DNA of 64,000 nucleotides, taken from positions 11,306 through 75,305 of the forward strand of contig CAZPNL010000001.1 in NCBI GenBank assembly GCA_964588145.1, read 5' to 3'. The notes under the pieces were generated by a model that saw nothing but the letters and a program-made list of their open reading frames with translations, was not told the DNA's origin and did no database searches. Position 1 is the first letter of the stretch. Each line of letters begins with the position of its first letter. The position numbers and the translations under genes were made by a program. The stretch is from an uncultured Gammaproteobacteria bacterium (lineage in GTDB: Bacteria; Patescibacteriota; Microgenomatia; UBA10105; UBA927). Positions 2,462 through 56,366 of the stretch are shown in pieces.

Positions 2462-2506
2462 GTTAGGACAAATATACGGAGTAAAGTTCTCCGTGATTCT
2501 TATATC

Positions 2507-4102: not shown

Positions 4103-4108
4103 TGGGTT

Positions 4109-5962: not shown

Positions 5963-5994
5963 TAAATTCGTTGCTTCGTATATCCACTGTCTAA

Positions 5995-9431: not shown

Positions 9432-11575
9432 TATTAATTCCTGTGATTTTGTACTCTGCGATACTGTTTGTCGTACTATTTTCCGTATTATTTTTGGATT
9501 CTCAACATCTATTATTTGGTGATGATATCCATAGGAATTATTATTTTTATCGAACATTTGTCAATCAAAGTCTGTCCGAAGGTAGGCTGCCTCTTTGGAA
9601 TCCTTATATATTTTCTGGTGTGCCCTTTATTGGGAATGCGATTGTAAATTTTTGGTATCCTCTCACGTGGTTGTATGTATTCTTGCCGTTACGTTTGGCT
9701 TTTTCGTGGCATGTGTATGCACACATCCTTTGGGCTATGTGTGGCATGTATGTGTTATTGCGTTCTAAGATGGCTTCCGTGCCTGCATTTATAGGTGGAA
9801 TTTTTTTTGGATTGTCTGGGTTTTTTATGTCTAGAATATGGGCGGGACATATGGATGTGATAGCAGCAGCATCGTATATCCCTTGGAGTTTTACTGCATT
9901 TGATGCTCTTATGCGTGCTGATCGGAAGCATGTACGATCATCGCTTGTGATAGCGAGCGTAGCATTTGCAGCTCAATTGTTTGCTGGGTATCAAACGATG
10001 GCATTTTTTACAGTAGAAGCACTCGGTATCTATATAGTTTGTACAAGTATTTCTTTGAAAAGCCTGCGCCCCTTCCTGCTTTGTGGCATGGCAGGGTTAC
10101 TGGCAATGGGGGCATCCAGTATACAAACTTATCCTGTGCAGGAATTTTTTCGTCAGGGTATACGAACATTTCAGTTTCCTTATGAGTGGATAACGTATGG
10201 ATCGATGACGCTTGAAAGTTTGTGGCAATTGTATGATCCGTTTCATTTTGGAGATCAACATACTTATGCAGGTCCACCACCAAATTATCATGAGCATGCG
10301 GCGTATTTTGGTAAAGTAGGTTTATTTTTCTTTTGCATGAGTCTTTTATGGTTAGTTGTGCAAACGGTTAGACGAAATTTAGGAATCAAAGATCATGTAA
10401 ATCATCGTGAAAAAGGAAATGTAGTATTTTTTGGGTCGATGGTTGCAGTTGCTTTTTTTACCATTTGGATCTCTCTAGGGTCAAATGCAATTGTTGATTT
10501 ACAAAAAATACTATGGCAAATCGTGCCTATGTATCATTATCTTCGATTTCCTCCGAGACATATGGTGCTTTTTGTTTTTTCCGGATCCGTACTGGCAGCA
10601 TATGGTGTATCTTTGCTTAAATATTTCAAAATACAGCTTGTAGTGTTGGTATTAATATTATATGAGTTAATCCCTTATGGGAGACATTTTATCGCAAGTC
10701 AGCTAGTGCCTGAAGATAGACATGATCCATATTTGGTGTCTCAGTTACAGCCCAAAAATGATGAACTCTTTCGTTACTTACCAAATTTTGGTGTATGGCT
10801 TGAGCCGCGCAATAGCATGGATCCTGATGCTGCTATGATGTATGGGCATTTTGATAGTACGGGGTATGATCCATCTATACTAAAATCGTATTACCAATTC
10901 GTTGATGCATCACTGGGGAATGCTACACCGAGCATACTTCAGCATGATGTACAGGTTCCATATATGAATTTAGGTAGCAGCTCTGTGGATTTTCTCAATA
11001 TTAAATACGTTTTATTGCCTACGTTTGCAGATACACTGCATGGTGTCGTATCAAAATATCGGCTTGTGAAAGAGGATTTGGAACGACAATATAGATTGTA
11101 TGAAAATACTCAGGTGCTCCCACGGTTTTATTTTGTTGATCAGGCACGTTACTTTTCTACGTCAGAAGCAGTGTATGCTGAAATCGCCTCAGGATTTTCC
11201 AAATATGCCCACGAAGTCCTCATTGAAGGAGCAGTTGAGCTTGTTAAGCCGTGCACAACTATCAGTCCGGGAAGCGTATCTATCATTTCGTATACAAATA
11301 ATGAGATTGTTCTTCAAACATCGAGAGAATGTCCTGGTTACTTAGTATCCAGTGAAGTATATTATCCTGGTTGGTCTGCTCGTATAGATGGAGTTCCAAC
11401 GAATATATACAAAAGTAATTTGTCGTTTCGAAGCGTATTGTTGCCACAAGGTACTCATAGAGTAGTCTTTTCCTATCAGCCAATCAGTGTATGGATTGGA
11501 GCTGCGGTCACAGGGATTACGATATTACTCCTATACTATCTGTGGAAACATCCAGAAAACACAGGATTACTATGA
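9410..11575 (+). CDS. YfhO-family membrane glycosyltransferase-like protein (tandem paralog)
   Basis: Start moved to ATG 9410 (MVKKAFLILIP...). Its N-terminus LLFGDDIHRNYYFYRTFVNQ aligns with the upstream paralog's MLFGDDIDRLSYFWISFFNQ. The C-terminus SEVYYPGWSARIDGVPTNIYKSNLSFRSVLLPQGTHRVVFSYQP carries the YfhO signature. Confidence 0.65.
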   Translation: MVKKAFLILIPVILYSAILFVVLFSVLFLDSQHLLFGDDIHRNYYFYRTFVNQSLSEGRLPLWNPYIFSGVPFIGNAIVNFWYPLTWLYVFLPLRLAFSWHVYAHILWAMCGMYVLLRSKMASVPAFIGGIFFGLSGFFMSRIWAGHMDVIAAASYIPWSFTAFDALMRADRKHVRSSLVIASVAFAAQLFAGYQTMAFFTVEALGIYIVCTSISLKSLRPFLLCGMAGLLAMGASSIQTYPVQEFFRQGIRTFQFPYEWITYGSMTLESLWQLYDPFHFGDQHTYAGPPPNYHEHAAYFGKVGLFFFCMSLLWLVVQTVRRNLGIKDHVNHREKGNVVFFGSMVAVAFFTIWISLGSNAIVDLQKILWQIVPMYHYLRFPPRHMVLFVFSGSVLAAYGVSLLKYFKIQLVVLVLILYELIPYGRHFIASQLVPEDRHDPYLVSQLQPKNDELFRYLPNFGVWLEPRNSMDPDAAMMYGHFDSTGYDPSILKSYYQFVDASLGNATPSILQHDVQVPYMNLGSSSVDFLNIKYVLLPTFADTLHGVVSKYRLVKEDLERQYRLYENTQVLPRFYFVDQARYFSTSEAVYAEIASGFSKYAHEVLIEGAVELVKPCTTISPGSVSIISYTNNEIVLQTSRECPGYLVSSEVYYPGWSARIDGVPTNIYKSNLSFRSVLLPQGTHRVVFSYQPISVWIGAAVTGITILLLYYLWKHPENTGLL

Positions 11576-13203
11576 ATCTTAGATTGCGACATATAGGAAG
11601 AAACATATTGGCAACACCTCGTAGTCTTTGGCTATTTACTTTTGTTGTCGTTGTTTTGGGGATGACGGGGACACTCGTGGAATGGTTTATGACTCCAGCT
11701 ACTCGAGTATACGGAGGATATCATGGATTTTCCCCTGATTATATAGGGTATGTATCTTATATTAAGCAGGGAAGCGTTGGGGGATGGTATATGACTTTTC
11801 GGTCTTACCCTCTGGATCAACCATTTACTTTTATCCATATTTTTTATACGTTCATGGGAAAAATTGGCGGTGTATTTACATTTTCTGCTCCACTAATCTA
11901 TCATTTGAGTAGAGCCATACTTGGAGTTGTGTTAATTTTTGTGACATACAGGTTTTATAAGATATTTTTGTCACACACAAATGCCATGATTGGTTTAGTA
12001 GGTGCATATGTGTTGACTCCCATAGGGTGGCTTGCTTCACAAAATGGTGTTTGGAATGTGCAACGACTAGCTGTTTTTCCTTTTGCTCAAAATTGGGTGG
12101 AGAGGATTACCACCAGGCCTCATTATATTGCTGGATCCATAGTGTTTATATTAATTTTTGAAGTAGTTCTTCGTATGCCATATAAATCGGGGCTATATAA
12201 AATAGGTGCTGTATTGGCACTTTTAGGAGCAAGCTTAAGTATAATCCACCCATCGTTTGGTATCTTGTGTGCAGTCGTACTTGTTGCGATCCTTAGTTTC
12301 AATACTTTGAGATTGAAAATAAAGCCTATTGTGCAGATGCATATCCTTTTTGGGCTTATTGGTGTGATAGTAGGTTTAGGACTCATATATTGGTCAATAC
12401 TGAGACAACAAGCCTACGGCATAAAGTGGCTTGATGCATATGTGTATACGGATATGTTCAATTTTGAAAGTATTAAAACAACTATATTGGCTATCGGACC
12501 GCTGCTATGGTTTGGATTTATAGGATTGATGTGGTCGATCAGGAAAAAAGATAGTAACTACGTGCATGTATGGCTTTGGATTGTCTTGCAGCTTGTGTTA
12601 TTTGTGTATGGATATAAATTTATCAACTCTGATAGAGTACGTTTTTTACAGGGGTTATATTTTGTTCCACTCGGTTTAGGATTTGCACTTTTTATTGAAA
12701 AGATTCGTCAAATTTTTCATCATCACGTGGCAGCTTTAGCCCTAGCTATTTGCATATTGTTGTCAGTGCCTTGCATTGTAGATGATTTAAAGCGAGGGAT
12801 AGGGGAGTATACGGATTTTGCTGACTTTAGTATTGCGACATTCCCTTCAAGATTTATGTATGACGCATACAAATATCTTAATGATCACTCACCTGTTGAA
12901 AGTGTGGTCATAGCTCGGTGGGAGGCAAGTAGTAATCTCATGCTTTTTAGTCACAATAGAGTGCTAGGAAATACGATCGCGTGGCCTGAAGAAGCAGGAA
13001 AAATTATGGATCACCAAAAAGATATTTTTTTTACAGCAACACTTTCTGAAGAAGATGCGCTAAAATATTTAGATTCTTATAATGTGCAATATATATATTA
13101 TGGATATCAAGAAAAATCATTAGGTGATATATCTCGGTATTCGTTTGTCCATCCAATATTTGAAAATCAAGATGCGACGATTTTTGAGGTAAAACGAAGC
13201 TGA
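11572..13203 (+). CDS. polytopic membrane protein, uncharacterised GT-C-like paralog family (member 3 of 5)
   Basis: Start at ATG 11572 overlaps the upstream stop (ATGA). First loop GFSPDYIGYVSYIKQGSVGGWYMTFRSYP. Conserved C-terminal domain. Confidence 0.55.
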   Translation: MNLRLRHIGRNILATPRSLWLFTFVVVVLGMTGTLVEWFMTPATRVYGGYHGFSPDYIGYVSYIKQGSVGGWYMTFRSYPLDQPFTFIHIFYTFMGKIGGVFTFSAPLIYHLSRAILGVVLIFVTYRFYKIFLSHTNAMIGLVGAYVLTPIGWLASQNGVWNVQRLAVFPFAQNWVERITTRPHYIAGSIVFILIFEVVLRMPYKSGLYKIGAVLALLGASLSIIHPSFGILCAVVLVAILSFNTLRLKIKPIVQMHILFGLIGVIVGLGLIYWSILRQQAYGIKWLDAYVYTDMFNFESIKTTILAIGPLLWFGFIGLMWSIRKKDSNYVHVWLWIVLQLVLFVYGYKFINSDRVRFLQGLYFVPLGLGFALFIEKIRQIFHHHVAALALAICILLSVPCIVDDLKRGIGEYTDFADFSIATFPSRFMYDAYKYLNDHSPVESVVIARWEASSNLMLFSHNRVLGNTIAWPEEAGKIMDHQKDIFFTATLSEEDALKYLDSYNVQYIYYGYQEKSLGDISRYSFVHPIFENQDATIFEVKRS

Positions 13204-13241: not shown

Positions 13242-14231
13242 ATGAAATCTATCGTAACAGGAGGGTTAGGATTTATAGGCGGTCATTTGGTGGAACAGTT
13301 GGCGGCTCTGGGACATATGGTAGTCGCACTAGATTATATTCCTGCTGGTACAAAGAGAAAGATAGACAAGGTAAAACATAAAAATGTTTCCTATCATGAT
13401 GTTGATATTACTAAAGCAGAGCTTATAGATAATCCGATATTTAAAGATGTAGATTGGGTGTTTCATTTGGCTGGGAGAAGCGATATTGTTCCATCTATTA
13501 CTAATCCAGTTGCATATCACGCAGTAAATGTTACGGGTACAGTGCATGTGCTTGAAGCAGCTAGGAAAAATTGCGTCAAGCGTTTTGTCTATGCAGCATC
13601 TTCTTCTTGTTACGGATTTCCGGATGTGTTTCCAACTTCTGAGACAGCGCAAGTAAAGCCAGAGTACCCATATGCGTTGACCAAGTGGATGGGTGAACAG
13701 TATGTGCTCCATTGGGCACGTGTATATAAGCTTCCAACAATCAGTTTACGTTTTTTTAATGTATTTGGTCCCCGCTCACGTGTGTCAGATGATTATGGAC
13801 CAGTGTTTAGTACATTTATCCCACAATTATTAGCTAGCGCTCCATTTACCGTGGTGGGGGATGGGAGTCAGTCGCGTGACTTTACTTTTGTTACAGATGT
13901 TGCAGATGCATGTATTTCGGCTGCATCATCTGATGTGGTAGGTGAGGTGTTTAACGTAGGTAGCGGTGGAACTTATACTATCAATCATCTCGTCAAGTTG
14001 CTGGGTGGTGGGAATGTTGTCAATATGCCTAAGCGGCCTGGTGAACCTGACAAGACGCATGCAGATATAACAAAAATCAAGAAGATGTTGGGTTGGAAGC
14101 CAAAAATAAGTTTTGAAGAAGGTGTCAAAATAGTATTGTCTCAAAAGGAATATTGGAAAAATGCTCCTGTTTGGTCTGCTATCGATATACAAAAAGCAAC
14201 CAAAGATTGGTTCACATATCTTTCTAAATAA
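13242..14231 (+). CDS. NAD-dependent epimerase/dehydratase (extended SDR, GalE/UXS-like)
   Basis: N-terminal Rossmann motif TGGLGFIGGHL. Catalytic YALTK (YxxxK) and ASSSCYG motifs. GGAGG Shine-Dalgarno 9 nt upstream. Confidence 0.75.
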   Translation: MKSIVTGGLGFIGGHLVEQLAALGHMVVALDYIPAGTKRKIDKVKHKNVSYHDVDITKAELIDNPIFKDVDWVFHLAGRSDIVPSITNPVAYHAVNVTGTVHVLEAARKNCVKRFVYAASSSCYGFPDVFPTSETAQVKPEYPYALTKWMGEQYVLHWARVYKLPTISLRFFNVFGPRSRVSDDYGPVFSTFIPQLLASAPFTVVGDGSQSRDFTFVTDVADACISAASSDVVGEVFNVGSGGTYTINHLVKLLGGGNVVNMPKRPGEPDKTHADITKIKKMLGWKPKISFEEGVKIVLSQKEYWKNAPVWSAIDIQKATKDWFTYLSK

Positions 14232-14308
14232 GAATTTAGACATTTAGTTTTGTCTTCAAGTATGAAGTGTGTGTGTTGCTGTTGATTATTGGGAGAAATA
14301 GAATTTAT

Positions 14309-15052
14309 ATGAAATTATACGAACAAACACGTGAGGTCATTTATGATACACAAAATAAAGATCCATTTTTTTGGTATCTGACGCGTAAACTTTTTAGTTC
14401 TGTAGATGTACAGCGCGGCGGCGTTGTGTTAGATCTTGGATGTGGATCCGGAAGGAATACGTTTTATGCAGCTCAATTAGGGCTTACTGCTATAGGTGTG
14501 GATTATATGCAAAAGGCTGTTGAAAATGGTAATGCACATGCAAAGAGCGAGGGTGTTTCAAAACGAGTCAAGTTTGTACGGGCAGATTTAACAAAGCTTC
14601 GACCAAAACAATTTGGACTCGTAGATTATGTGATCCTCAATGAAGTAATTGAGCACATAGAGAATTATCAAAAAATTGTTGATTTTGCCTATGAGAGCTT
14701 AAGACCTGGTGGTAAATTATTGCTCACGACACCAAATGATCCTATATTTTGGACAATTTTAGATGATTATGCGCAGCATGTACGTCGATTTCGTATTTCT
14801 GAAATAGCGAGTGCGTTTCGTCAATTCTCATATGTAGAAATATCGACCGTGGGATTTCCGCTTCATAAACTTGTTATATATTTATATGACAAGTTCTCTG
14901 TGAAAAAGAGAGTGGGGCACAATCCGAAGACATTTCGAAGTAGTTCTATTGTTTCCAAAATGTATTATTTTATCGGTACTATCGTTATGAGTATCGACAA
15001 TTTGTTTCATACTCAAAAAGGTACCACTATTGTAGCGATTGGTACTAAATAG
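14309..15052 (+). CDS. class I SAM-dependent methyltransferase
   Basis: VLDLGCGSGRNTFYAA SAM-binding motif I. Motif-post-I region LLLTTPN. ATG 14309 preferred over the track start 14267 because of the GGGAG SD at 14291. Confidence 0.65.
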   Translation: MKLYEQTREVIYDTQNKDPFFWYLTRKLFSSVDVQRGGVVLDLGCGSGRNTFYAAQLGLTAIGVDYMQKAVENGNAHAKSEGVSKRVKFVRADLTKLRPKQFGLVDYVILNEVIEHIENYQKIVDFAYESLRPGGKLLLTTPNDPIFWTILDDYAQHVRRFRISEIASAFRQFSYVEISTVGFPLHKLVIYLYDKFSVKKRVGHNPKTFRSSSIVSKMYYFIGTIVMSIDNLFHTQKGTTIVAIGTK

Positions 15053-15215: not shown

Positions 15216-16754
15216 ATGGGCAGAATGAGTGATACAAAAATTTCAAAAATTAGTGTCCTTGCAAAAACGATTCGCAGGATTAAAAAGGAACACAAGAAGA
15301 TTGTCCTCTGTCATGGAGTTTTTGATCTCATACACCCAGGCCACATACGACATCTACAATCAGCTAAAGAATTTGGTGATATCCTTGTTGTCACAATAAT
15401 CGCAGATAAACATGTAAACAAAGGACCGGGGAGACCAATATTTCATGAAGATTTACGAGCAGAAGTGATTGCATCGCTAGAATTTGTTGATTATGTGGCC
15501 ATTGTTAATAGTGAAACAGCCAAACATGCAATTAATTTGCTTATCCCAGATGTGTATGTAAAAGGTGCGGAACATAAAAATCGGCGGACAAACCCACTTT
15601 CACAACAACAAGAGCTAGATGAAGAAAAAGCTATAAAGGCAGTTGATGGATTAGTTCAATATACAGATGATATTGTATACAGTTCTTCCCATTTAATTAA
15701 TCAATATTTGGCAGTATATCCTACACGGACAAAACAATTTTTAACTCAGTTTCGGAAAAAGTATTCAGATGCATTTGTCATAGAAAAGTTAGCAGCACTT
15801 CGTAAATTATCGGTGCTGGTTATAGGTGATGCGATTATAGATCAATATTATTATTCAAAACCAATGGGCAAGTCGACGAAAGAGCCGATTGCTGTGCACA
15901 AATATTTGTCAGAGGAGTCATTTGCGGGGGGTGCGCTTGCAGCTGCAAACCATGTAAGTGCACTATCTGAAAATGTAACACTTTTGACGCTTTTGGGAAA
16001 GAAAAAATCATTTGAAGGGTTTATACGTAAACATTTGCGTTCAGAAGTATCACCAAAGTTCTTTTATAAAAATAATAGCGGAACCATTATTAAACGTCGT
16101 TTTATAGATGAGCTTACGAAGCAAAAATTATTTCAAATCAGCTATATCAAAGATGAAGATGTGGATGAGAAGTTGGAATCGTCTGTAATAGATTGGTTAA
16201 AAGGCGAACTGCCTAAATATGATGTTGTAATTGTCAACGACTTTGGGCATGGATTTGTGACGAAAAGAATGATTAAGACTATTACAGCACTCGCGAAATT
16301 TTTGGCTGTCAATGTGCAGGCAAATAGTGCAAACTTTGGTTTTAATGTCGTGACCAAATATCCTCGGGCTGATTTTGTCTGTATTGATGATACCGAATTA
16401 CGGTTAGCTATGCACGACAGGTATGGAAATCTAAATTCGCTTGTGAAGCGGATTGGATCTAAATTGAAGTGTAAAGAAATACTCGTTACAAAAGGTCAAC
16501 ATGGATCAGTTGCATATTCAAAAAAGGATGGATATTTGGAAACGCCATCCTTGACTGACAAAGTAGTTGACAGAGTAGGAGCGGGAGATGCATTATTTGC
16601 TATATCATCGCCACTTGTGGCTATGGGGTTTGAGAGAGAGCTCGTAGGATTTGTGGGAAATGTAGCAGGAGCACTTCATGTGCAGACCGTTGGAAACAAG
16701 CGGACTATGCAGTTTGATGAAATGGCCAAATTTATCACGCGATTATTAAAGTGA
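15216..16754 (+). CDS. bifunctional sugar-phosphate nucleotidyltransferase / pfkB-family sugar kinase (HldE/RfaE-like with reversed domain order)
   Basis: The N-terminal 140 aa (CHGVFDLIHPGHIRHLQSAKEFGDILVV...RPIFHEDLRAEVIASLEFVDYV) match the cytidylyltransferase-like RfaE domain II with its HxGH motif. The C-terminal 330 aa (VLVIGDAIIDQYYYSKP ... DRVGAGDALFA) match RfaE domain I heptose-7-P kinase / pfkB kinases. Confidence 0.6.
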   Translation: MGRMSDTKISKISVLAKTIRRIKKEHKKIVLCHGVFDLIHPGHIRHLQSAKEFGDILVVTIIADKHVNKGPGRPIFHEDLRAEVIASLEFVDYVAIVNSETAKHAINLLIPDVYVKGAEHKNRRTNPLSQQQELDEEKAIKAVDGLVQYTDDIVYSSSHLINQYLAVYPTRTKQFLTQFRKKYSDAFVIEKLAALRKLSVLVIGDAIIDQYYYSKPMGKSTKEPIAVHKYLSEESFAGGALAAANHVSALSENVTLLTLLGKKKSFEGFIRKHLRSEVSPKFFYKNNSGTIIKRRFIDELTKQKLFQISYIKDEDVDEKLESSVIDWLKGELPKYDVVIVNDFGHGFVTKRMIKTITALAKFLAVNVQANSANFGFNVVTKYPRADFVCIDDTELRLAMHDRYGNLNSLVKRIGSKLKCKEILVTKGQHGSVAYSKKDGYLETPSLTDKVVDRVGAGDALFAISSPLVAMGFERELVGFVGNVAGALHVQTVGNKRTMQFDEMAKFITRLLK

Positions 16755-16776
16755 TTTAATGAGGAAAGGATATGCT

Positions 16777-17808
16777 ATGAAAAAAACTTCTAAGCAAGGA
16801 GATAAACAAATTCGTCATGTGCTTGTAACAGGTGGTGCAGGATATGTGGGTTCTTCATTAATTCCAAAACTTTTGGATAAGGGCTATGAAGTGACAGTAT
16901 ATGATTTGTATTTGTACGGAAAAGGAGAAGTGGTATTTCCTGCACATGTATCACATAAAAAATTACATCAAGTTCAAGGAGATTTGCGAAACCGAGCACT
17001 ATTGAAACAATCACTTACTGGTGTTGATGCAGTGATCCATTTGGCATGTATATCAAATGATCCAAGTTTTGAGTTGGATCCTGGTTTAGGAAAATCTATC
17101 AATTACGACGCGACTATAGCTCTTATTGATGATGCAAAAGAAGTGGGCGTGCAACGATTTATTTATGCTAGTAGCTCAAGTGTATATGGAGTCAAAGAAG
17201 AAAAGGAAGTGACTGAAGAGCTATCACTTGAGCCACTTACTGATTATTCAAAATTTAAAGCTCTTTGTGAGCCGTATCTTGTAGAAAAAGGTGATGATAT
17301 ATTTACTCCATTGGTACTACGACCAGCAACAGTCTGTGGATATGCACCAAGATTACGGCTTGATTTGACTGTGAATATTTTGACACTGAGTGCATTAGTC
17401 AAACATAAGATAACTGTTCATGGAGGGCAGCAGGAGAGGCCAAATATTCATATAGAGGATATGACAGATGCGTATCTATTTATGCTTGAGCAACCGAAGG
17501 AGAAAATTTTTGGCAAAATCTATAATGTCGGTTTTGACAATATGAAACTCATTGATATAGCAAAAATGGTCAAAAAAGTTATCGGGGACGATAGTATTGA
17601 AATTGAGATCACTCCTACAAATGATTTGCGTTCTTATAGAGTGTCATCCAATAAAGTGGCAAAAGAATTAGGGTTTGTTCCTAATCGTACAGTCGAGGAT
17701 GCTATTTCTGATCTCGTGAAGGCATATAGGGCAGGAAAAATTACTGATGCTTTTCATGATAATAGGTTTTTTAATATAAAAACCATGCAGCAAAAACAGT
17801 TGAAATAA
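16777..17808 (+). CDS. NAD-dependent epimerase/dehydratase (extended SDR)
   Basis: VLVTGGAGYVGSSL motif, YASSSSVYG and YSKFK (YxxxK). ATG 16777 is preferred because the SD GAGGAAAGG sits 7 nt upstream. The track start is 16759. Confidence 0.7.
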   Translation: MKKTSKQGDKQIRHVLVTGGAGYVGSSLIPKLLDKGYEVTVYDLYLYGKGEVVFPAHVSHKKLHQVQGDLRNRALLKQSLTGVDAVIHLACISNDPSFELDPGLGKSINYDATIALIDDAKEVGVQRFIYASSSSVYGVKEEKEVTEELSLEPLTDYSKFKALCEPYLVEKGDDIFTPLVLRPATVCGYAPRLRLDLTVNILTLSALVKHKITVHGGQQERPNIHIEDMTDAYLFMLEQPKEKIFGKIYNVGFDNMKLIDIAKMVKKVIGDDSIEIEITPTNDLRSYRVSSNKVAKELGFVPNRTVEDAISDLVKAYRAGKITDAFHDNRFFNIKTMQQKQLK

Positions 17809-17824: not shown

Positions 17825-18793
17825 ATGACAAATAAAAAATTACGAGATTTATATACAAAACTCCTGTATATACGCAGGGTTGAAGAGCGTATATCGCACG
17901 AATATCAATTTCATGAGATTCGTTGTCCGACACATTTGGCAGTAGGACAAGAAGCGATTGCTGTCGGGATCTGTGACTATCTAAAAACTGAAGATATAGT
18001 TTTTTCTACACACAGGTCACATGCGCACTACTTGGCAAAAGGTGGCGACTTACCAGCGTTTATCGCAGAGCTCTATGGTAAGGCGACAGGATGTGCAAAG
18101 GGATTTGGTGGTTCACAGCATCTCCTTGACCAAAAAGTGAATTTTTGGGGATCCACTCCAATTGTTGCGAGTACTATTCCTGTGGCAGTGGGTGCAGCTT
18201 ATGGCGTTTTTCGGAAAAAAGAAAAGAAAGTAGTTGTGGTGTTTTTTGGTGATGCGGCTACTGAGGAAGGGGTATTTGCGGAAAGTGTGAATTTTGCAGC
18301 ACTCCATGCTCTTCCTGTCATATTTGTCTGTGAAAACAATAGATATTCAACTAACACTCCCATACGGGAAAGACAAATTGATCGGTTCATATTTCCTGTT
18401 GCGCAGGCGCTTGGTGCCAAGGCATTTCACTCTGATGGAAATGATATTGCAAAAGTACGTACCATAGCGAAAAAAGTAGTCAGTAATGCTCGAAGTGGCA
18501 AGGGGCCGCAATTTGTAGAGTTTGAAACATATCGTACCTTGCAACACTGCGGACCCAAGGAAGACCCTCCGGGTTACCGGTCAGAAGGTGAGAAAGAGCA
18601 GTGGAAAAGGAGAGATCCTCTTCTCTTGGCGCAAAAAATGATGAAACAGCAGGGGATGAAGGTTACTGATGAGATTTCAACTATTGAAAAAGACGTACAA
18701 CAATTAGTAGATGCTGCATTTATATTTGCCAAAGAAAGTGCATTGTCTCGTGTTGAGTTAACTGAAGAGTTAATGTATGCAAGTAGGCAATAG
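17825..18793 (+). CDS. thiamine-diphosphate-dependent dehydrogenase E1 component alpha subunit (PDH/acetoin-DH E1-alpha-like)
   Basis: HLAVGQEAIAVG and the ThDP motif FFGDAATEEGVFAESVNFAALHALPVIFVCENNRYS. Confidence 0.75.
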   Translation: MTNKKLRDLYTKLLYIRRVEERISHEYQFHEIRCPTHLAVGQEAIAVGICDYLKTEDIVFSTHRSHAHYLAKGGDLPAFIAELYGKATGCAKGFGGSQHLLDQKVNFWGSTPIVASTIPVAVGAAYGVFRKKEKKVVVVFFGDAATEEGVFAESVNFAALHALPVIFVCENNRYSTNTPIRERQIDRFIFPVAQALGAKAFHSDGNDIAKVRTIAKKVVSNARSGKGPQFVEFETYRTLQHCGPKEDPPGYRSEGEKEQWKRRDPLLLAQKMMKQQGMKVTDEISTIEKDVQQLVDAAFIFAKESALSRVELTEELMYASRQ

Positions 18794-18796
18794 GCT

Positions 18797-19897
18797 ATGA
18801 AAAATACCACACAAAAATTTGATGGAAAAACATGTGAAATGACATACGCAGATGCTATACGTGATGCACTTGATATAGCGCTTGCTCGGGATCCTCTTAC
18901 GTTTGCTATAGGTGAGGGAATTCCTGACCCTAAAGGAGCTTTTGGTACGACTACGGGACTGGCTGCTAAGCATGGTCCTTATCGCATCATGGATATGCCA
19001 GTAAGTGAAAATGGACTTACTGGAGTTGCTATAGGAGCCGCACTTGCGGGTATGCGGCCGATACTCACACACATGCGGATAGATTTTGCATTGCTATCAC
19101 TTGATCAAATTATTAATAATGCTGCCAAATGGTATTACATGTATGGGGGTCAAGTATCAGTGCCAATAGTCATACGGATGATTATTGGTCGCGGATGGGG
19201 TCAAGGGCCACAGCATTCACAGAGTTTGCAGGTGTTATTTGCTCACATTCCTGGTCTAAAGGTCGTGATGCCCGCAACTGCATCTGACGCAAAGGGATTG
19301 TTACTTTCAGCTATAGCCGATCCCAATCCTGTGATTTATATAGAGCACCGGTGGCTTCATAAAGTAACTGGACCTGTGCTCTCTGGATATGTTGAAACAC
19401 CTATTGGATCTGCACGAGTTATAGAAAAAGGCACTGATGTAACTATTGTGTCATCATCATACATGACAGTGGAGTGCTTGAAGGCGCATGGAATTCTCAA
19501 AAAGGCTGGAATACGTGCGGAAGTTGTAGATTTGCGATCGATCAAGCCAATTGACTGGACTACCCTAGAGGCGTCAGTGGGGAAAACGAAGCGACTACTT
19601 GTTGCTGATACGGGACACACGTCGTTTGGTGTATCTGCTGAAATACTCGCACATGTGGCAGAAAAAGGGATATCACTATTGGCTCCACCTGTACGTGTAG
19701 CATCACCAGATTTACCCGTGCCTACTGCTAAACAACTGGCTGAGGCATATTATCCAACTGCAAAAACAATAGTACTTAAAACGCTCCAATTGATGGGCTT
19801 GAGAAAAGAGCAGATAGATGGCATCATATGTGATATAAAAGATACGCCCAATGTGAGCTCAGATCAGCCTGACCCTACATTTACCGGGCCATTTTAA
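18797..19897 (+). CDS. thiamine-diphosphate-dependent dehydrogenase E1 component beta subunit
   Basis: MTYADAIRDALDIALARDPLTFAIGEGIP...RIMDMPVSENGLTGVAIGAALAGMRPI is a transketolase-like pyrimidine-binding domain with a C-terminal domain. No E2/E3 partner lies nearby. Confidence 0.75.
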   Translation: MKNTTQKFDGKTCEMTYADAIRDALDIALARDPLTFAIGEGIPDPKGAFGTTTGLAAKHGPYRIMDMPVSENGLTGVAIGAALAGMRPILTHMRIDFALLSLDQIINNAAKWYYMYGGQVSVPIVIRMIIGRGWGQGPQHSQSLQVLFAHIPGLKVVMPATASDAKGLLLSAIADPNPVIYIEHRWLHKVTGPVLSGYVETPIGSARVIEKGTDVTIVSSSYMTVECLKAHGILKKAGIRAEVVDLRSIKPIDWTTLEASVGKTKRLLVADTGHTSFGVSAEILAHVAEKGISLLAPPVRVASPDLPVPTAKQLAEAYYPTAKTIVLKTLQLMGLRKEQIDGIICDIKDTPNVSSDQPDPTFTGPF

Positions 19898-19903: not shown

Positions 19904-21109
19904 ATGGATTACAGTGTCATACCGTTTTCACAAAAAAGCACATGTTCTGTGTGTGGTGCCAAGCTTGGACGTACACTTATTGATTTACCACGACTTCCAC
20001 TGACTGAAATATTTGTCAAAAAAAAGCAGCCAAAGGGGATGGGGTTTGTAGATCAGCAGTTTTATGTTTGCGATACGTGTCATCATGGACAATTAGGCAC
20101 CATCGTCGATCCAAAATTTTTATACAATTCTGATGCCTATTTTTTCCGCACCGGAGAGAGTAAGACTGCTCCTGCCGCCAATGATTTTTTCCTCAATTTC
20201 ATCATGTCTCATGTACGCAGTGGCAGAATTGGCACCATCATTGATGTTGGATGTAGTGATCTGTATTTACTCAATGCTCTCCGTGGAAAAGCCAAGCGGT
20301 TAGTAGGAATTGATCCAGTGCTTAAAGGGCGAGAGGAAGAGCTGTCTGATGATCAGATGACGGTCATTGGTGATTTTCTCGAAAATATAGATATGACCAA
20401 GTACATGGGTGATGATACGCTTGTCATCAGTAGTCATACGATGGAGCATATAAAGGATCCGTCTAGTGTCATATCGCAGCTATTTGATGTAGCGACTGAT
20501 AAAACACAATTTATGTTTCAGTTTCCCAGTCTTGAACCGGTCCTGACAGACCGACGATTTGATCAGATTTTTCATCAGCATCTGCAGCTCTATTCTAAAG
20601 ATTCGTTTACGTATTTAGTTGAAAATCATGGAGGAGAGGTGGTAGATACAACTGTAAATTATTTTCATTGGGGCGCACTCCTCGTATCATTTCGTAAAAG
20701 TGCAAAGAAGTCTAAGCCTATAAAGATTTCTACTAACTCGCTCTTTGATCGTAGTAATATATTGGAAAGTTATGGTGATTATAAAGCTCGCATGTCTGTG
20801 GCAAATAGATATATTCAGTCTCTTTCGAATGAAAAAGTGTATGGATTTGGAGCAACACTCATGCTTCCTATATTGGCCTATCACTTAGGTAATGATTTGT
20901 CATCGTTTGAATCAATACTGGACGATGACCAGAGTAAGCATGGACATTTTTATCTTAATCTCCCAGTGGCGATAGCAAGTCCCGAGAGTGTTCGGGCTAT
21001 GGATGAGGCTACGGTGGTTGTGACTGCATACAATACTGCGAGATCTGTGATGCCGCGCGTCTTGCATCTGCGCCCCAAACGAATCGTTCTGCCTATGCAG
21101 ATGATGTAA
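19904..21109 (+). CDS. NDP-sugar C-methyltransferase-like (TylC3/NovU-like: Zn-ribbon + SAM MTase + C-terminal C-methyltransferase domain)
   Basis: N-terminal Cys4 zinc ribbon (CSVCGAKLG ... CDTCHHGQ), then a SAM fold (IIDVGCSDLYL), then a ~150-aa C-terminal domain. This architecture is typical of sugar C-3/C-5 methyltransferases. Confidence 0.6.
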   Translation: MDYSVIPFSQKSTCSVCGAKLGRTLIDLPRLPLTEIFVKKKQPKGMGFVDQQFYVCDTCHHGQLGTIVDPKFLYNSDAYFFRTGESKTAPAANDFFLNFIMSHVRSGRIGTIIDVGCSDLYLLNALRGKAKRLVGIDPVLKGREEELSDDQMTVIGDFLENIDMTKYMGDDTLVISSHTMEHIKDPSSVISQLFDVATDKTQFMFQFPSLEPVLTDRRFDQIFHQHLQLYSKDSFTYLVENHGGEVVDTTVNYFHWGALLVSFRKSAKKSKPIKISTNSLFDRSNILESYGDYKARMSVANRYIQSLSNEKVYGFGATLMLPILAYHLGNDLSSFESILDDDQSKHGHFYLNLPVAIASPESVRAMDEATVVVTAYNTARSVMPRVLHLRPKRIVLPMQMM

Positions 21110-22903: not shown

Positions 22904-23107
22904 ATTGCGTCAGACATCACGCGTTAGGCGTCACACCAACTGAAGTATGATTTTGTCATTGCGAGGAATTGCATAGTTTTTAGCGAAGATGACGTGGCAA
23001 TCTTTTCAGGTTTCGAGTTTTGGAAGTTGAAAGTAACAATTGAACAATATAATAATTTAGCAATTTAGCTCAATTTCGACAAGGTTAATGGGGCAAGCAA
23101 TTTATTT

Positions 23108-38425: not shown

Positions 38426-38947
38426 ATGGATGTATTTATTACTATTTTGACAATTAGTATCGTTATACTATTTTTATTGGTACAGCTGGTGGTGCACAGG
38501 GTATTTTCGCAGAAAAATGTCATTCGGCTGATACTAGTGTCATACTGCATAACTTTATTGGTTAGCATTTTCGTATGCGTTGGGTATATTTTGATGCGTT
38601 TTATTGAAATACAGAGTTTTAGCGTGTGGATGGCGATTGGAGTTTCATTCTTTTTGGGTTCACTTTGGATTCTTGACTATATTACCGGTTTTTTTGGATT
38701 ACCAATTTCTTCTCTTCGTATCAAATTACTGAGCGATATTGCCCGTGCCGGAGACAGAGGAATCTCTGATAAAAAGCTACTGTCAGGGTATAACAAAAAA
38801 GAAATTATTGCGGTACGGCTAGACAGGCTTGTGCGGGCGGGGGAGCTTGTGGAAAATAAGGGTTCGTATGTGTTAACACGTGGATATTCATATTTGCGTT
38901 TGCATGCATTCATGCACCGTGTACTTCGACGTGTATATAATGGGTAA
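38426..38947 (+). CDS. small membrane protein: 3 TM helices + C-terminal winged-helix-like domain (member 4 of 4)
   Basis: ATG 38426 lies 1 nt after the upstream stop. MDVFITILTISIVILFLL... The C-terminal part is LRIKLLSDIARAGDRGISDKKLLSGYNKKEIIAVRLDRLVRAGELVENKGSYVLTRG. Confidence 0.55.
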   Translation: MDVFITILTISIVILFLLVQLVVHRVFSQKNVIRLILVSYCITLLVSIFVCVGYILMRFIEIQSFSVWMAIGVSFFLGSLWILDYITGFFGLPISSLRIKLLSDIARAGDRGISDKKLLSGYNKKEIIAVRLDRLVRAGELVENKGSYVLTRGYSYLRLHAFMHRVLRRVYNG

Positions 38948-40583
38948 CACTGCCATGAGGCAATCACAAAATTCTATCCGTCATATAGGAATAGATCTGG
39001 ACAATACGATCATTTTTTATGACGCTGCATTTTGGCGCTATGGGAGGCTACTTTATGACATGCCTAAGGATGTGCCAGTTCAAAAATTAGCTATTCGTAC
39101 TTGGTTTCGTTCTCAGCCACAAGGTGAGGCAAAATGGACTGCCCTACAGGGGTATGTCTATACACAGGGTATATCAGCTGCAAACATAGCCCCTGGCGTC
39201 ATAGAATTTATAAAAGAGGCTCAAAAAAGAAACATACCTGTTTCTATCGTTAGTCATAAGACCATGTATCCTGCTGTTGGGTCACGGATAGATATGCGAC
39301 AGAAAGCAGTTGATTTTTTAGAAACCCAAGGCGTTTTGGAGGTGTTAGGTTCAGTAAGTGCTATATATTTTGCTGATAGTCGGACACAAAAAATTACAAC
39401 GATTAGAGATATTGGGTGTGATGTATTTATAGATGATTTGCCAGAAGTTTATAGCGAAAAGATTTTTCCAGTTTATATAAAAAAAATCCTGTTGTCAGGT
39501 CAGAAGATTTCGCAGGAAGGTGTCTCTGTTTGTGCAGATTGGCAAGAAGTGTATTCTGTAGTGTTTGGTAGCGAGCAAGATATGGCGCACGTTTCTCATA
39601 TATGTGTGCGTCAGTTGTCAGGTTTTTTGTATGCGAGGCCACTTACTCCAAGTTTAAATTGTCGGGTGTATGAAGCTATATGCGAATCTGGATCATATCT
39701 TGTAAAAAGGTATAACACCTATGAGGGTGACAAAAGAAATAGATTACATACTGAATACCAGGCATTAACGTTTTTGAAAAAGTGTGGTGAGCGTTGGGTG
39801 CCGGCTCCAGTAGCGCTTGATGCAGCTAATAATATAGGGATATATGAGTTTTTACATGGGGAAAATTTACGGGAAAAATCTGTAACAAATAAACAAGTTG
39901 ATTTGCTTTTGTCCTTTGTCACGCGACTTCGAGATTATTCAAAAGTTCCTGAGGCAAAAGATTTATCAAGTGCATCTGAAGCAAGTTTCTCCATAAAACA
40001 ATATATAAAGCAGGTGGAGAGGCGAATGAAAATCTTTAAAAACGTGCAAGCTGCTTCTACCTTAGAGGGCGAATTTATTCAGTTTGTTCAGCAAAAGTTG
40101 CAACCGTTGTGGTCTGAAATATTGGTATATGTATATGAAAAATGCAAAGAGCGTCATATTGTGATAGACGCGCAGTTTTCAAAAGAAGATTTATTATTAT
40201 CACCTTCGGATTTTGGGTTTCATAACTGTTTACAGACTAGCGATGGATTGTATTTTATTGATTATGAATATTTTGGTTGGGATGATTCTGTTAAGCTCAT
40301 TGCAGATCTACTTCTTCATCCTGCTATGAAGCTCACAAAGACTCAGAAAAAATTTATTCGATCGACGCTTCTGGCGAAATTTACTACAACAGAGGTGGAA
40401 CAGCGTTTTGACATGGTGTATCTGATGTTGTCGATCAAATGGATTTGTATTATGTTGAATTGTTTTACAAGGATGCATGTTGGTCAAGAGTCAGAAAATA
40501 TGTGTTCGCGTCAACTCAGGCTTGCTCAGTTGCATCTTGCCCGTACAGTGGTAGAATTTCAGAAGCTAGTTCAGGGTGCTTAA
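38940..40583 (+). CDS. HAD-superfamily hydrolase domain fused to APH/choline-kinase-like phosphotransferase domain
   Basis: N-terminal IGIDLDNTIIFYD is a HAD motif I (DxDxT). C-terminal SDFGFHNCL and IDYEYFGWDD match the HxDxxxxN and D-x-E catalytic and Mg-binding motifs of the aminoglycoside/choline kinase family. The start is ambiguous between ATG 38940 and 38955. Confidence 0.5.
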   Translation: MGNTAMRQSQNSIRHIGIDLDNTIIFYDAAFWRYGRLLYDMPKDVPVQKLAIRTWFRSQPQGEAKWTALQGYVYTQGISAANIAPGVIEFIKEAQKRNIPVSIVSHKTMYPAVGSRIDMRQKAVDFLETQGVLEVLGSVSAIYFADSRTQKITTIRDIGCDVFIDDLPEVYSEKIFPVYIKKILLSGQKISQEGVSVCADWQEVYSVVFGSEQDMAHVSHICVRQLSGFLYARPLTPSLNCRVYEAICESGSYLVKRYNTYEGDKRNRLHTEYQALTFLKKCGERWVPAPVALDAANNIGIYEFLHGENLREKSVTNKQVDLLLSFVTRLRDYSKVPEAKDLSSASEASFSIKQYIKQVERRMKIFKNVQAASTLEGEFIQFVQQKLQPLWSEILVYVYEKCKERHIVIDAQFSKEDLLLSPSDFGFHNCLQTSDGLYFIDYEYFGWDDSVKLIADLLLHPAMKLTKTQKKFIRSTLLAKFTTTEVEQRFDMVYLMLSIKWICIMLNCFTRMHVGQESENMCSRQLRLAQLHLARTVVEFQKLVQGA

Positions 40584-40589
40584 AATACA

Positions 40590-41432
40590 ATGAAATATCA
40601 AATAGGTGATGAACATCGGCAGGTATTAGATTCCGTTTCTTTGCAACTGCGTCAGGAAATTTTGCATGTAGTTGATAAATCTCGTCGTGGACACATTGCA
40701 TCTGCTTTTTCGCTCGTTGAGATTATGCGGGTATTGTATACAACAATACTTAATGTAGATCCCAAGAATTCTAAGTGGTCAGCACGTGATAGATTCATTC
40801 TCAGCAAAGGACATGGCTGTTTAGCCCAATATATCATGCTTGCAGAGCGTGGATTTATAACTCGCGAGCAACTCTATAATTTTTGTATGTTTGATTCAAT
40901 TTTGGGAGGGCATCCGGATGCTCGTAAAATTCCAGGTGTTGAGGCCAGTACGGGGGCTTTGGCACACGGTTTATCTATAGGTATGGGGTATGCTCTGTCT
41001 GCACGCATGGATGAGCGTGCATTTCGCACTTTTGTCATCATAAGTGATGGCGAATGCCACGAGGGTTCCACTTGGGAGGCTGCTTTATCGATCGCTAAAT
41101 ATAATCTAACAAATATTATTACGATCATGGACTACAATAAAATGCATAGTTATGGACAGGGGAGTCAAATTCTCAATATCGAGCCGCTTACAGATAAATG
41201 GAATAGTTTTGGTTTTGGCGTTACAGAAGTCAATGGTCATAGTGTAAAAGATTTAGAGAAGGCGTTTCGAAAAGCATTGGTTCGAAGAGATAAGCCGCAA
41301 ATTATTATTGCGCATACTGTAAAAGGGAAGGGTGTACACGGGGTAGAGGATAATCCAAAATGGCATCATAAAGCGAAAATTAGTGATGAAGAGATGAAGT
41401 TATTGGTTGAAGGCTTGGAGATTAGGTTATAG
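40590..41432 (+). CDS. transketolase, N-terminal (ThDP-binding) subunit (second copy)
   Basis: HIASAFSLVEIM ... ILSKGHGCLAQY ... GALAHGLSIGMGYAL ... ISDGECHEGSTWE. Confidence 0.75.
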   Translation: MKYQIGDEHRQVLDSVSLQLRQEILHVVDKSRRGHIASAFSLVEIMRVLYTTILNVDPKNSKWSARDRFILSKGHGCLAQYIMLAERGFITREQLYNFCMFDSILGGHPDARKIPGVEASTGALAHGLSIGMGYALSARMDERAFRTFVIISDGECHEGSTWEAALSIAKYNLTNIITIMDYNKMHSYGQGSQILNIEPLTDKWNSFGFGVTEVNGHSVKDLEKAFRKALVRRDKPQIIIAHTVKGKGVHGVEDNPKWHHKAKISDEEMKLLVEGLEIRL

Positions 41433-41532
41433 CCTGGTGGGCTGTAGCTCGTAGCCTGTAGGAAGATAGCCAGTAGCCAGTAAGAAAGTAGCCATTAGGA
41501 AGGTAGCTGGTTAGCATGTAGCGGGTAGCTGG
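41430..41532. repeat. degenerate 7-8-bp tandem repeat (TAGCNNG / TARGAAGN units, ~13 units, ~22-bp higher-order period) in the spacer between transketolase N and C subunit genes
   Basis: Read directly: tagcctgg tgggctg tagctcg tagcctg taggaaga tagccag tagccag taagaaag tagccat taggaagg tagctggt tagcatg tagcggg tagctgg. It begins at the TK-N stop codon. TAG recurs in all three plus-strand frames. Confidence 0.6.
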
Positions 41533-41664
41533 TGAAGGGCGAAGCGGAAGTAAACATTACTATATTTGAATGAGGCAGTAGGATTCTACTTATAAAGTGA
41601 TTTTACATATTTAAAGTTGGATTGAAAGTTTGCATTTTAATAGTTGCATGTTGCATTTCTAATT

Positions 41665-42642
41665 ATGCGTAAAACAGTACTGACTGAAACTTATAAATTA
41701 GCAAAAAAAGATAAACGTGTGGTGTTTGTTGGCTCAGACTTGGGAGCAGGGACACTTGACGAGTTTAAAAAAGAAATGCCTGAGCGGTTTTTTATGGAAG
41801 GCGTGTCCGAACAACACATCATTGGACAAATGGCTGGTATGGCTACCAATGGAAAAATTCCATTCTTTAATACCATCGCTGTTTTTTTGACACGTCGATG
41901 TCTCGAGCAAATTATTATTGATGTGGCTTTGCCAAATTTGCCTGTGCGACTTCTGGGAAGTGGTGGAGGACTTGTCTATGCACCGCTTGGGCCTACACAT
42001 CTAGCTATCGATGATATTTCCATAATGCGAGGGATACCAAATATGACCATACTGGTGCCTGCTGATGCTACGGAGATGGAACGGCTAATGCCACAAACAC
42101 TTGAGCATCGTGGACCAATTTATATTCGTATAGCTAAAGGGGGAGACCCAGTGGTAACCCCACCTGATATGCCTTGTATTATCGGGAGAGGAATGCCTAT
42201 GAAAAAAGGCGAAGATGTATTACTCATTAGTACAGGGACTACATTACAATTGGCGATTGAGGCAGCCTCAATATTAAAACTAGATAGTATCGATGCGGCA
42301 GTGCTCCATATGCCAACTATAAAACCTTTTGATCGAGAGCTTGTGGTAGATATGGCTGCCAAGGTGCGAGGGATTGTTACAATTGAAGAGGCATTTGTCC
42401 ATGGAGGATTAGGTTCTGTCGTAAGTGAAGTTGTGGCTGATGCGCGGTATAGTAAGCCAAAGCCAATACTGCGGATAGGGATTCCTGATGTATTCCCTGA
42501 TAAATATGGTTCGCAATCTCAACTTTTGGCATACTACGGCATAACGACAGAGAGAGTTGTTGATGCAGCCAAGAGACTTATAGGTAATGAAACGACTATG
42601 ATTGCGCGATCAAACGTAAGAAAAAAACCCATAAAGCGTTAA
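41665..42642 (+). CDS. transketolase, C-terminal subunit (second copy)
   Basis: MRKTVLTETYKLAKKDKRVVFVGSDLG aligns with the N-terminus of 23108..24040. ATG 41665 is preferred over the TTG 41644 track start. Confidence 0.7.
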   Translation: MRKTVLTETYKLAKKDKRVVFVGSDLGAGTLDEFKKEMPERFFMEGVSEQHIIGQMAGMATNGKIPFFNTIAVFLTRRCLEQIIIDVALPNLPVRLLGSGGGLVYAPLGPTHLAIDDISIMRGIPNMTILVPADATEMERLMPQTLEHRGPIYIRIAKGGDPVVTPPDMPCIIGRGMPMKKGEDVLLISTGTTLQLAIEAASILKLDSIDAAVLHMPTIKPFDRELVVDMAAKVRGIVTIEEAFVHGGLGSVVSEVVADARYSKPKPILRIGIPDVFPDKYGSQSQLLAYYGITTERVVDAAKRLIGNETTMIARSNVRKKPIKR

Positions 42643-48475: not shown

Positions 48476-48495
48476 GAATGAGTATAATATAGCAT

Positions 48496-49293: not shown

Positions 49294-49300
49294 TGTAAGT

Positions 49301-51986: not shown

Positions 51987-51987
51987 A

Positions 51988-56365: not shown

Positions 56366-56366
56366 T

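Follow-up and report, generated by a model that had tools for sequence, protein, structure and literature searches.

An HldE-like fusion protein with reversed domain order from an uncultured patescibacterium and the gene module that accompanies its family

Heptose nucleotide sugars are building blocks of the bacterial envelope; ADP-heptose, CDP-heptose and UDP-heptose also potently activate ALPK1, a receptor of innate immunity. The kinases of the HldA/HldE type are anomeric kinases, and in HldE the kinase domain precedes an adenylyltransferase domain within one polypeptide. Here we describe an open reading frame (ORF) in which these two domains occur in the reverse order, i.e. a nucleotidyltransferase (NT) domain followed by a pfkB kinase domain. 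It lies in a 64,000-nucleotide stretch of DNA (positions 11,306 to 75,305 of the forward strand of contig CAZPNL010000001.1, assembly GCA_964588145.1; hereafter the window) from an uncultured bacterium placed by GTDB in the Patescibacteriota. Coordinates refer to the window (Table 1) unless another locus is named.

The closest described systems are (i) HldE of E. coli, (ii) the separate Burkholderia enzymes HldA and HldC, and (iii) the HBEs and HENases of Tang et al. 2024, which, as far as they are described in PMC11461863 and PMC11573728, comprise mono-domain (NT), di-domain (kinase/NT) and tri-domain (isomerase/kinase/NT) proteins. The fusion resembles HldE in combining the same two domain families in one polypeptide and in sharing the HxGH, KG..RP, KG, S of STT, GD..D, GG and GAGD motifs, but differs from it in fusion order, in the residues detailed below and in a family context without GT9, HldD and lipopolysaccharide (LPS) genes. 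HldA (PDB 4e84) and HldC (5x9q) are its closest solved structures, yet the sequence identity is only ~24%; as in the case of these separate enzymes, the reversed-order family also has stand-alone kinases and a stand-alone NT (locus L036). With the HBEs and HENases it shares the occurrence of divergent HldE-like enzymes outside LPS-bearing bacteria and an isomerase fusion (protein P0182). Going by the commentary descriptions, it is set apart from them by its NT-first order, by GmhB-NT-kinase, NT-kinase-GmhA and NT-NT-kinase fusions, and by Tyr155 at the STTR5 position.

The ORF had been predicted, from its letters and translation only, to encode an HldE/RfaE-like bifunctional enzyme with an N-terminal NT and a C-terminal pfkB domain, and Pfam, NCBIfam and BLASTP comparisons with E. 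coli HldE all agree with this assignment. The Pfam annotation proposed as a check was run and found both families above their gathering thresholds, PF01467 (CTP_transf_like) at amino acids (aa) 32–123 (E 8e-12; 45.9 bits, threshold 21) and PF00294 (PfkB) at aa 199–493 (E 5e-14; 52.7 bits, threshold 25.8). The four peptide strings quoted in the original prediction are all present in the ORF (HPGH, aa 40–43; GRPIFHEDLRAEVIASLEFVDYV, aa 72–94; VLVIGDAIIDQYYYSKP, aa 200–216; GAGDALFA, aa 455–462). BLASTP against HldE of E. coli K-12 aligned query residues 23–121 with HldE residues 336–436 (36% identity, E 4e-19) and query residues 192–494 with HldE residues 5–300 (23% identity, E 3e-15); since the two stretches match HldE in opposite order, the domain order is swapped. 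An AlphaFold2 (AF2) model built from a 41-sequence family alignment (pLDDT 92.1, pTM 0.84) consists of two domains joined by helices.

The best NCBIfam model was TIGR02199 (rfaE_dom_II) for the NT half (aa 19–123; 108.4 bits, equivalog cut-off 181.5) and TIGR02198 (rfaE_dom_I) for the kinase half (aa 193–506; 132.5 bits, cut-off 345), while the full-length HldE model NF008454 matched in two stretches (174.6 bits, cut-off 521); no model of any other family exceeded 46 bits on either half. The sequence-closest solved structures were Burkholderia HldA 4e84 (E 3e-14) and HldC 5x9q (E 1.6e-12), and a fold search of the PDB with the AF2 model placed HldA 4e84 on top (TM 0.85 over the target, E 5e-25), with the next pfkB kinases (~E 4e-17) trailing it by ~8 orders of magnitude. 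Neither half comes as close to any other pfkB or cytidylyltransferase family as it does to the domain models and structures of HldE. The order found in HldE equivalogs (kinase first, adenylyltransferase second) is replaced here by an NT at aa 19–165 and a kinase at aa 193–506. Because the scores do not come near the equivalog cut-offs and residues that never vary in the canonical enzymes are swapped, the fusion protein is, judged by its sequence, neither an equivalog nor an orthologue of HldE.

Proteins of this kind are numerous. The best 120 matches in a database of 5.8 billion sequences all combine PF01467 with PF00294, most of them are ~510 aa long and, the query's own 100% match aside, they are 42–60% identical to the query; their named sources are Candidatus Gottesmanbacteria (candidate phyla radiation, CPR) and Omnitrophota. 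A HMMER search of 1.8 billion 50%-identity cluster representatives returned at least 150 at E<1e-88, most of which align collinearly along their entire length. Scanning one genome per GTDB species revealed collinear NT-then-kinase genes in Omnitrophota, Elusimicrobia, Neomarinimicrobiota, Planctomycetota and Verrucomicrobia, and also in Alpha- and Gammaproteobacteria (among them the cultured Bradyrhizobium sacchari p9-20), cyanobacteria (Microcoleus), gut Lachnospiraceae and Dehalococcoidales. Full-length members are carried on finished plasmids of the cultured strains Solidesulfovibrio carbinolicus DSM 3852 and Azospirillum oryzae KACC 14407, both labelled 'PfkB family carbohydrate kinase' in RefSeq; the family proteins of these two species are WP_129356083.1 and WP_149200362.1, respectively. 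No curated model for a reversed-order NT-PfkB family was found in Pfam (at the family level) or NCBIfam, and a literature search found no description of a reversed-order HldE or of its gene module. By similarity and domain make-up, the reversed-order proteins are a large, uncharacterised family of HldE paralogues.

In some relatives further domains are fused to the pair. These comprise (i) a GmhB-like + NT + kinase protein (P0122, 699 aa), (ii) an NT + kinase + GmhA-like protein (P0182, 764 aa; GmhA-like part aa 600–764), and (iii) NT-NT-kinase proteins with tandem NT domains (P0078, P0103 and P0117, 668–692 aa). At locus L002, a gene encoding an NT and a GmhB-like domain (8883–9959) is placed directly upstream of the NT-kinase fusion. 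The GmhA-like and GmhB-like fusions, together with gene linkage, suggest a connection of the family with the reactions of the four-step heptose route.

Single-domain members were also found. There are stand-alone kinases (P0142, P0227, P0248 and P0256), and Klebsiella sp. BIGb0407 (L036:9932–12147) encodes a stand-alone reversed-type NT, 160 aa long and scoring 100 bits against the NT domain of the query, ~700 bp upstream of a short-chain dehydrogenase/reductase (SDR) of the type encoded at window position 16759 (273 bits), i.e. a split, kinase-less part of the module in an enterobacterium.

Cyanophage cytidylyltransferase-like proteins, 26–36% identical to the NT domain of the fusion, adjoin nucleotide-sugar epimerases (record H18, Synechococcus phage Sf-FS3, PV340856.1: 101560–102356; records H22–H25, P-TIM68 and S-SM2). 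In one of these cases a pfkB kinase is located beside the cytidylyltransferase-like gene, in NT-then-kinase gene order.

Neighbouring genes were annotated within ±10 kb of 21 reversed-order loci (the window included) from more than 10 phyla and of 59 canonical loci (HldE, HldA/HldC or HldC) from the same GTDB scan, with reference proteins from E. coli and the window. SDRs of the window-13242 and window-16759 types accompany 15 and 14 of the 21 reversed-order genes, respectively, and none of the canonical ones. The N and C parts of a split transketolase (TKN and TKC) were present at 14 and 15 reversed-order loci, compared with two canonical loci each. An HAD-like protein and an APH-family kinase (11/21 each), a WbuC cupin (7/21), an E1 alpha/beta pair and a C-methyltransferase (4/21 each) had no counterpart at the 59 canonical loci, and a zinc-dependent alcohol dehydrogenase (Zn-ADH) occurred in 6/21 versus 1/59. 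A GmhA-like isomerase was found at 12 reversed-order and 10 canonical loci, and a GmhB-like phosphatase at four and eight. In contrast, GT9 heptosyltransferases (11/59) and HldD of the E. coli type (4/59) were seen at canonical loci and at none of the 21. The same arrangement of the module is present on the RefSeq-annotated plasmids of A. oryzae and S. carbinolicus. The reversed-order family therefore has a conserved module of its own, apart from the LPS-core context.

GmhA uses Glu65 as its catalytic base and His180 as its catalytic acid, and binds Zn through H61, E65, Q172 and H180 (PMC5387315). All 13 isomerases that are genetically linked to, or fused with, reversed-order proteins (including L001:12642–13340, L004:12531–13148, L006:11509–12108, L007:11535–12134 and aa 600–764 of P0182) carry Asp in place of Glu65 and Glu in place of Gln172, and Thr120 is changed to Ser, Gly or Ala; nine canonical GmhAs are invariant at residues 65, 120 and 172. 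By these signature residues, the linked and fused isomerases are a distinct GmhA-like subtype (Asp65/Glu172).

The genes for the HAD-like protein and the APH-family kinase always lie next to the split transketolase (L001:14452–16048, L004:781–2338 and, on the minus strand, L012:15758–17440). In most relatives these are two neighbouring genes; the window and a Bradyrhizobium metagenome-assembled genome encode the pair as a single protein. In the family alignment the HAD-like partner has all four motifs (DxDxT, SHK, K and FIDD), and the APH partner has K41, E57, the D209..N214 loop and D226. Profile searches of the PDB with these partners gave remote matches only, the best being choline kinase LicA and corramycin phosphotransferase, both at E ~1e-4, with phosphoserine phosphatase as a further match.

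In order to compare residues, we aligned 67 reversed-order with 57 canonical NT domains and 64 reversed-order with 19 canonical kinase domains. Common to both groups are G34, F36, D37, H40, G42, H43, K69, G70, R73, P74, R81, D92, K116, G117 and S156 in the NT, and G204, D209, G238, G239, T290, K293, R295, D342, E394, D452, G455-A-G-D458 and N482 in the kinase. The catalytic motifs of HldE are thus intact in the fusion (HxGH, the K/R phosphate ligands and the S of STT; GG and the Asp of GAGD). The HxGH motif also occurs in canonical HldC/HldE; within the reversed-order family its H40 and G42 do not vary, and H43 is at least 90% conserved.

Other positions are 84–100% conserved in canonical sequences and occupied in the reversed-order family by a different residue, itself conserved. 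These switches set the fusion family apart from HldE. In the NT they are (E. coli to query numbering) T345 to C32, N346 to H33 (Asn in 100% of the 57 canonical and His in 97% of the 67 reversed-order domains), Y359 to H46, N375 to T62 and T464 to S157; in the kinase, R31 to G218, E35 to K222, N55 to A242, N59 to H246, Q115 to K304, D177 to N370 and T265 to A459. In addition, D76, R118, D120 and N195 are invariant in canonical kinases and not in the reversed-order family, where the counterpart of N195 (position 391) is Asp in merely 50% of members. The query carries the family-specific residues H33, H46, Y114, E136, K222, A242, H345 and N366/Q368/N370/N373, its sole deviation being Ile62 in place of Thr.

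Some of these changes fall on predicted ligand contacts. The TNG and NSD motifs of B. pseudomallei HldC, which contain N346 and N375, were predicted by docking to contact heptose 1-phosphate (PMC7993394); they read CHG and IAD in the fusion (family consensus of the latter, T-x-D). The counterpart of FEHDRSTT is '..VYSSS', in which Tyr155 takes motif position 5 (the STTR5 arginine position; family consensus Phe). The (F/L)XXGXSTT motif affects the choice of NTP by heptose nucleotidyltransferases (PMC11461863, PMC11573728) and, as it reads ..VYSSS here, the NTP used is not predictable from it. The residue changes suggest another substrate or another mode of binding.

We consider it reasonably probable that the fusion is a bifunctional sugar-activating enzyme of a widespread subfamily paralogous to HldE, which serves as anomeric kinase and NT in a parallel pathway to an NDP-heptose or a similar NDP-sugar. 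According to this scheme, a ketose phosphate would probably be supplied by the dedicated split transketolase and, in relatives, converted to an aldose phosphate by the GmhA-like isomerase of the Asp65/Glu172 subtype, the simplest case being sedoheptulose 7-phosphate to heptose 7-phosphate. The pfkB domain (Asp458, GG 238–239, Lys293) would phosphorylate the anomeric O1 of the aldose phosphate, most likely heptose 7-phosphate or a close higher-sugar analogue, after which a phosphatase of the HAD family would remove the distal phosphate and the NT domain (H40/H43, K69, R73, R81, S156) would convert the sugar 1-phosphate and an NTP to an NDP-sugar. The flanking SDRs, methyltransferases and E1-like thiamine pyrophosphate (TPP) enzymes may then tailor the NDP-sugar. 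Since the window contains many genes for small GT2 and GT-C (YfhO/PMT_2) glycosyltransferases, delivery may use a polyprenyl-phosphate carrier and end at a protein or polymer of the cell surface rather than at the LPS core. Those parts of the scheme that we infer are the sugar, the nucleotide, the phosphatase acting here, where the isomerase comes from and what becomes of the product.

The original prediction had placed the gene in a nucleotide-activated heptose route. The linkage or fusion of relatives to GmhA-like, GmhB-like and split transketolase partners speaks indirectly for such a route, but not for the canonical ADP-heptose pathway with a permuted HldE, and that picture is to be replaced by a paralogous, uncharacterised pathway.

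Several points count against the scheme. (i) The 64-kb window contains no GmhA-like or GmhB-like gene: GmhA was found neither by Pfam scans of those ORFs of at least 100 aa that were considered likely genes nor by tblastn with four GmhA-like queries, as the original prediction had already noted, and tblastn with the proteins of relatives found no GmhB-like or NT-GmhB gene in it. (ii) Nine of the 21 reversed-order loci, the window among them, have no GmhA within 10 kb. (iii) The scheme does not account for the APH-like kinase, nor, as a simple four-step pathway, for the two NT domains of L002, P0078, P0103 and P0117. (iv) NCBI labels the members only as 'PfkB family carbohydrate kinase' or 'adenylyltransferase/cytidyltransferase family protein'. 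(v) The swapped canonical-invariant residues include predicted substrate contacts, and the substrate may not be D-glycero-D-manno-heptose phosphate.

Systematic divergence from the canonical counterpart is seen in all enzymes of the module, and another higher-carbon sugar is therefore also possible. Only tentatively do we propose that the module (transketolase, Asp65/Glu172 isomerase, fusion, HAD, APH-like kinase and two SDRs) might be an unrecognised multi-phylum pathway to a new NDP higher-carbon sugar, chemically distinct from ADP-D/L-glycero-D-manno-heptose and destined for non-LPS surface glycosylation. If true, this would place a new-sugar pathway in CPR bacteria, Omnitrophota, Lachnospiraceae, Dehalococcoidales, Bradyrhizobium, Azospirillum and others.

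It is unlikely that the fusion is instead a true functional orthologue of HldE. Such a role is consistent with the top rank of the HldE models for both halves, with HldA and HldC as the closest solved relatives, with the occurrence, in relatives, of GmhA-like and GmhB-like partners as linked genes or fused domains and with the intact catalytic residues; moreover, Tang et al. 2024, as described in PMC11461863 and PMC11573728, showed that NDP-heptose is still the product of divergent heptose biosynthetic enzymes from different kingdoms. Against it stand scores far under the equivalog cut-offs, switches at canonical positions that are 100% conserved, E65D and Q172E at catalytic and Zn positions of all 13 linked isomerases, and the lack of GT9 and HldD genes near any of the 21 loci. 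The hosts, too, include CPR bacteria, Lachnospiraceae and Dehalococcoidales, lineages generally regarded as LPS-less.

A salvage-type enzyme, in which the kinase would act on a free sugar at C1 and the NT would activate the product with no need of an isomerase or phosphatase, is less plausible still, and we regard it as improbable. It would explain why the window and other loci (9/21 in all) have no reachable GmhA-like gene and why GmhB-like genes occur at merely four loci, and the loss of E35, N55, N59, D76, R118, D120 and D177 is compatible with a lost phosphate-binding sub-site. The NT-first order with a kinase that acts first is also that of Bacteroides FKP (fucokinase/GDP-fucose pyrophosphorylase) and the FAD synthetase RibF, but these are functional analogies only, their kinase folds (GHMP and riboflavin kinase) and substrates being unrelated to those of the fusion. 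Salvage is contradicted by the members fused to GmhB-like and GmhA-like domains, by the directly adjacent isomerase at 12 of the 21 loci and by the dedicated transketolase and HAD phosphatase, conserved partners which imply phosphorylated intermediates.

We hold a function outside heptose metabolism to be very improbable. In that case the NT would make a CDP-alcohol or CDP-alditol (as TagD- and ethanolamine- or choline-phosphate-type enzymes do) for a teichoic-acid-like polymer, and the pfkB domain would be a generic sugar or alditol kinase. PF01467 indeed also holds TagD, ECT and CCT, which were weaker PDB matches, the conserved APH-family neighbour is distantly similar to LicA, and the Asn residues predicted to contact the sugar in HldC are swapped. 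YfhO-type GT-C genes, known from teichoic-acid glycosylation, fill the window. However, the glycerol-3-phosphate cytidylyltransferase (TagD) model TIGR01518 reached only 39.2 bits on the NT half (cut-off 165), against 108 for rfaE_dom_II, and ribokinase and 1-PFK models ~29 bits on the kinase half (ribokinase cut-off 300), against 132 for rfaE_dom_I, so that the pairing of a TagD-type enzyme with a generic ribokinase, named in the original prediction as a refuting case, fails; HldA is clearly the best fold match, and the fusion and linkage to GmhA-like and GmhB-like partners likewise disagree with it. The CDP-6-glucitol route of C. jejuni was considered as a model and set aside as a conceptual rival only, as it uses a PF01128 transferase.

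The other refuting case, in which a frameshift or misassembly would have artificially joined two neighbouring genes, can be dismissed, since the ORF is continuous and the fusion is kept in more than 10 phyla, in the best 120 homologues, in the mostly collinear cluster representatives (at least 150) and on finished plasmids of cultured strains, and the confident AF2 model shows two domains with a helical linker.

If the fusion family does serve a parallel NDP-heptose(-like) pathway, a large family of paralogues with its own partner genes would widen the range of known nucleotide-sugar pathways, including those of organisms without LPS (gut Lachnospiraceae and the ultra-small CPR bacteria), and would offer an entry point to CPR surface glycans, about which hardly anything is known. 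Should the product be an NDP-beta-manno-heptose, these bacteria would be new producers of ALPK1 agonists. The members in the cultured A. oryzae, S. carbinolicus and B. sacchari make the proposal directly testable.

Table 1. Features of the reversed-order fusion gene and of the surrounding module genes in the window
Feature	Position	Strand	Remarks
NT-kinase fusion, reversed-order HldE-like (whole ORF)	15216..16754	+	512 aa, ATG start, no internal stop; domain models
N-terminal NT domain, HldC/HldE-domain-II-like	15270..15710	+	aa ~19-165; TIGR02199, PDB 5x9q, BLASTP
CHGVFD segment	15309..15326	+	family-specific counterpart of canonical TNG (N346 to H33); predicted sugar 1-phosphate contact
HxGH motif (H40-P-G-H43)	15333..15344	+	nucleotide-binding signature
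SSS motif	15681..15689	+	aa 156-158; counterpart of (F/L)XXGXSTT of heptose nucleotidyltransferases
Helical inter-domain linker	15711..15791	+	aa ~166-192; AF2 helices at 170-182 and 185-197
C-terminal pfkB kinase domain, HldA/HldE-domain-I-like	15792..16733	+	aa ~193-506; TIGR02198, PDB 4e84
NVQANSANFGFN segment	16311..16346	+	family-conserved (N366, Q368, N370, N373, G375), in place of canonical DPKG (D177 to N370)
GAGD motif	16578..16589	+	aa 455-458; pfkB catalytic Asp458; kept in reversed-order and canonical groups
Upstream SDR (epimUp)	13242..14231	+	PF01370; best NCBIfam model GalE, 155 bits; heptose_epim 113 against cut-off 275
Class I S-adenosylmethionine (SAM) methyltransferase	14267..15052	+	between upstream SDR and fusion; Pfam
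Downstream SDR (epimDown)	16759..17808	+	PF01370; 60% identical to L001 neighbour; HldD model 81 bits against cut-off 275
E1 alpha (17825-18793) and E1 beta (18797-19897)	17825..19897	+	TPP-dependent pair; accessory tailoring unit
C-methyltransferase	19904..21109	+	Methyltransf_13/14 zinc-ribbon type
HAD-like phosphatase domain fused to APH-family kinase	38880..40583	+	~21 kb further downstream; Pfam HAD E 0.05
Split transketolase, N part (40590-41432) and C part (41644-42642)	40590..42642	+	57% identical to L001 pair
Zn-ADH	43518		module partner downstream of split transketolase

The downstream SDR starts 4 nt past the stop codon of the fusion and is the most constant immediate neighbour in the family. 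The E1 alpha/beta pair follows an SDR likewise in L002, L007, L008 and the A. oryzae plasmid, and both L002 and that plasmid show the gene succession fusion, SDR, E1 alpha, E1 beta again. The E1 pair and the C-methyltransferase hint at two-carbon branching and C-methylation of the NDP-sugar. Overall, the gene order of the window is closest to that of the Gottesmanbacteria loci.

None of the four genes of an HldE-type context (GmhA, GmhB, HldD and GT9) was found in the window, and the expectations raised for individual genes fared unevenly. The HAD fusion noticed near 38940 does exist, as an HAD-like/APH fusion with the four motifs, but it is not GmhB-like according to NCBIfam. Four epimerases had been counted, and four PF01370 epimerase-type SDRs are indeed encoded (13242, 16759, 45396 and 55316), of which none is an HldD equivalog in NCBIfam, where GalE-type models score higher and heptose_epim falls far under its cut-off. 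The ORF at 26800, taken for a GT9-like gene, was rejected as such, since Pfam assigned it to no family with the limit relaxed to E<=1 and BLAST did not match it with WaaC or WaaF of E. coli.

The two split transketolases that had been predicted are both present, the second pair (22094–24040, plus strand; parts at 22094 and 23108) being located after an SDR at 21306. Its parts are 44% and 29% identical to those of the pair at 40590/41644.

Much of the remaining window encodes glycosyltransferases and membrane proteins. There are 11 GT-C membrane ORFs, either YfhO-like (7266, 9377, 24044 and 31864) or PMT_2-like (764, 46766, 49301, 50577, 56325, 57767 and 61690), as well as GT2 enzymes of ~240 aa (30254, 34500, 37199 and 48496) and small membrane ORFs (35210, 35679 and 38381). 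These Pfam families (GT-C, small GT2, small membrane proteins and methyltransferases) suggest that the window is a large hub of extracytoplasmic surface glycosylation dependent on polyprenyl-phosphate sugars and GT-C enzymes, which would fit better than LPS assembly.

Several ORFs of 420–620 aa without a Pfam match are interspersed among the GT-C genes (764–13203, 24044–26710, 31864–34503 and 46766–63240). Scans for tRNA and Rfam RNA genes found none in the 64 kb. Nearly all genes of the window are on the plus strand, the GC content is 34–44% and the GC skew is positive throughout, as seen from a monotonic rise of the cumulative skew.

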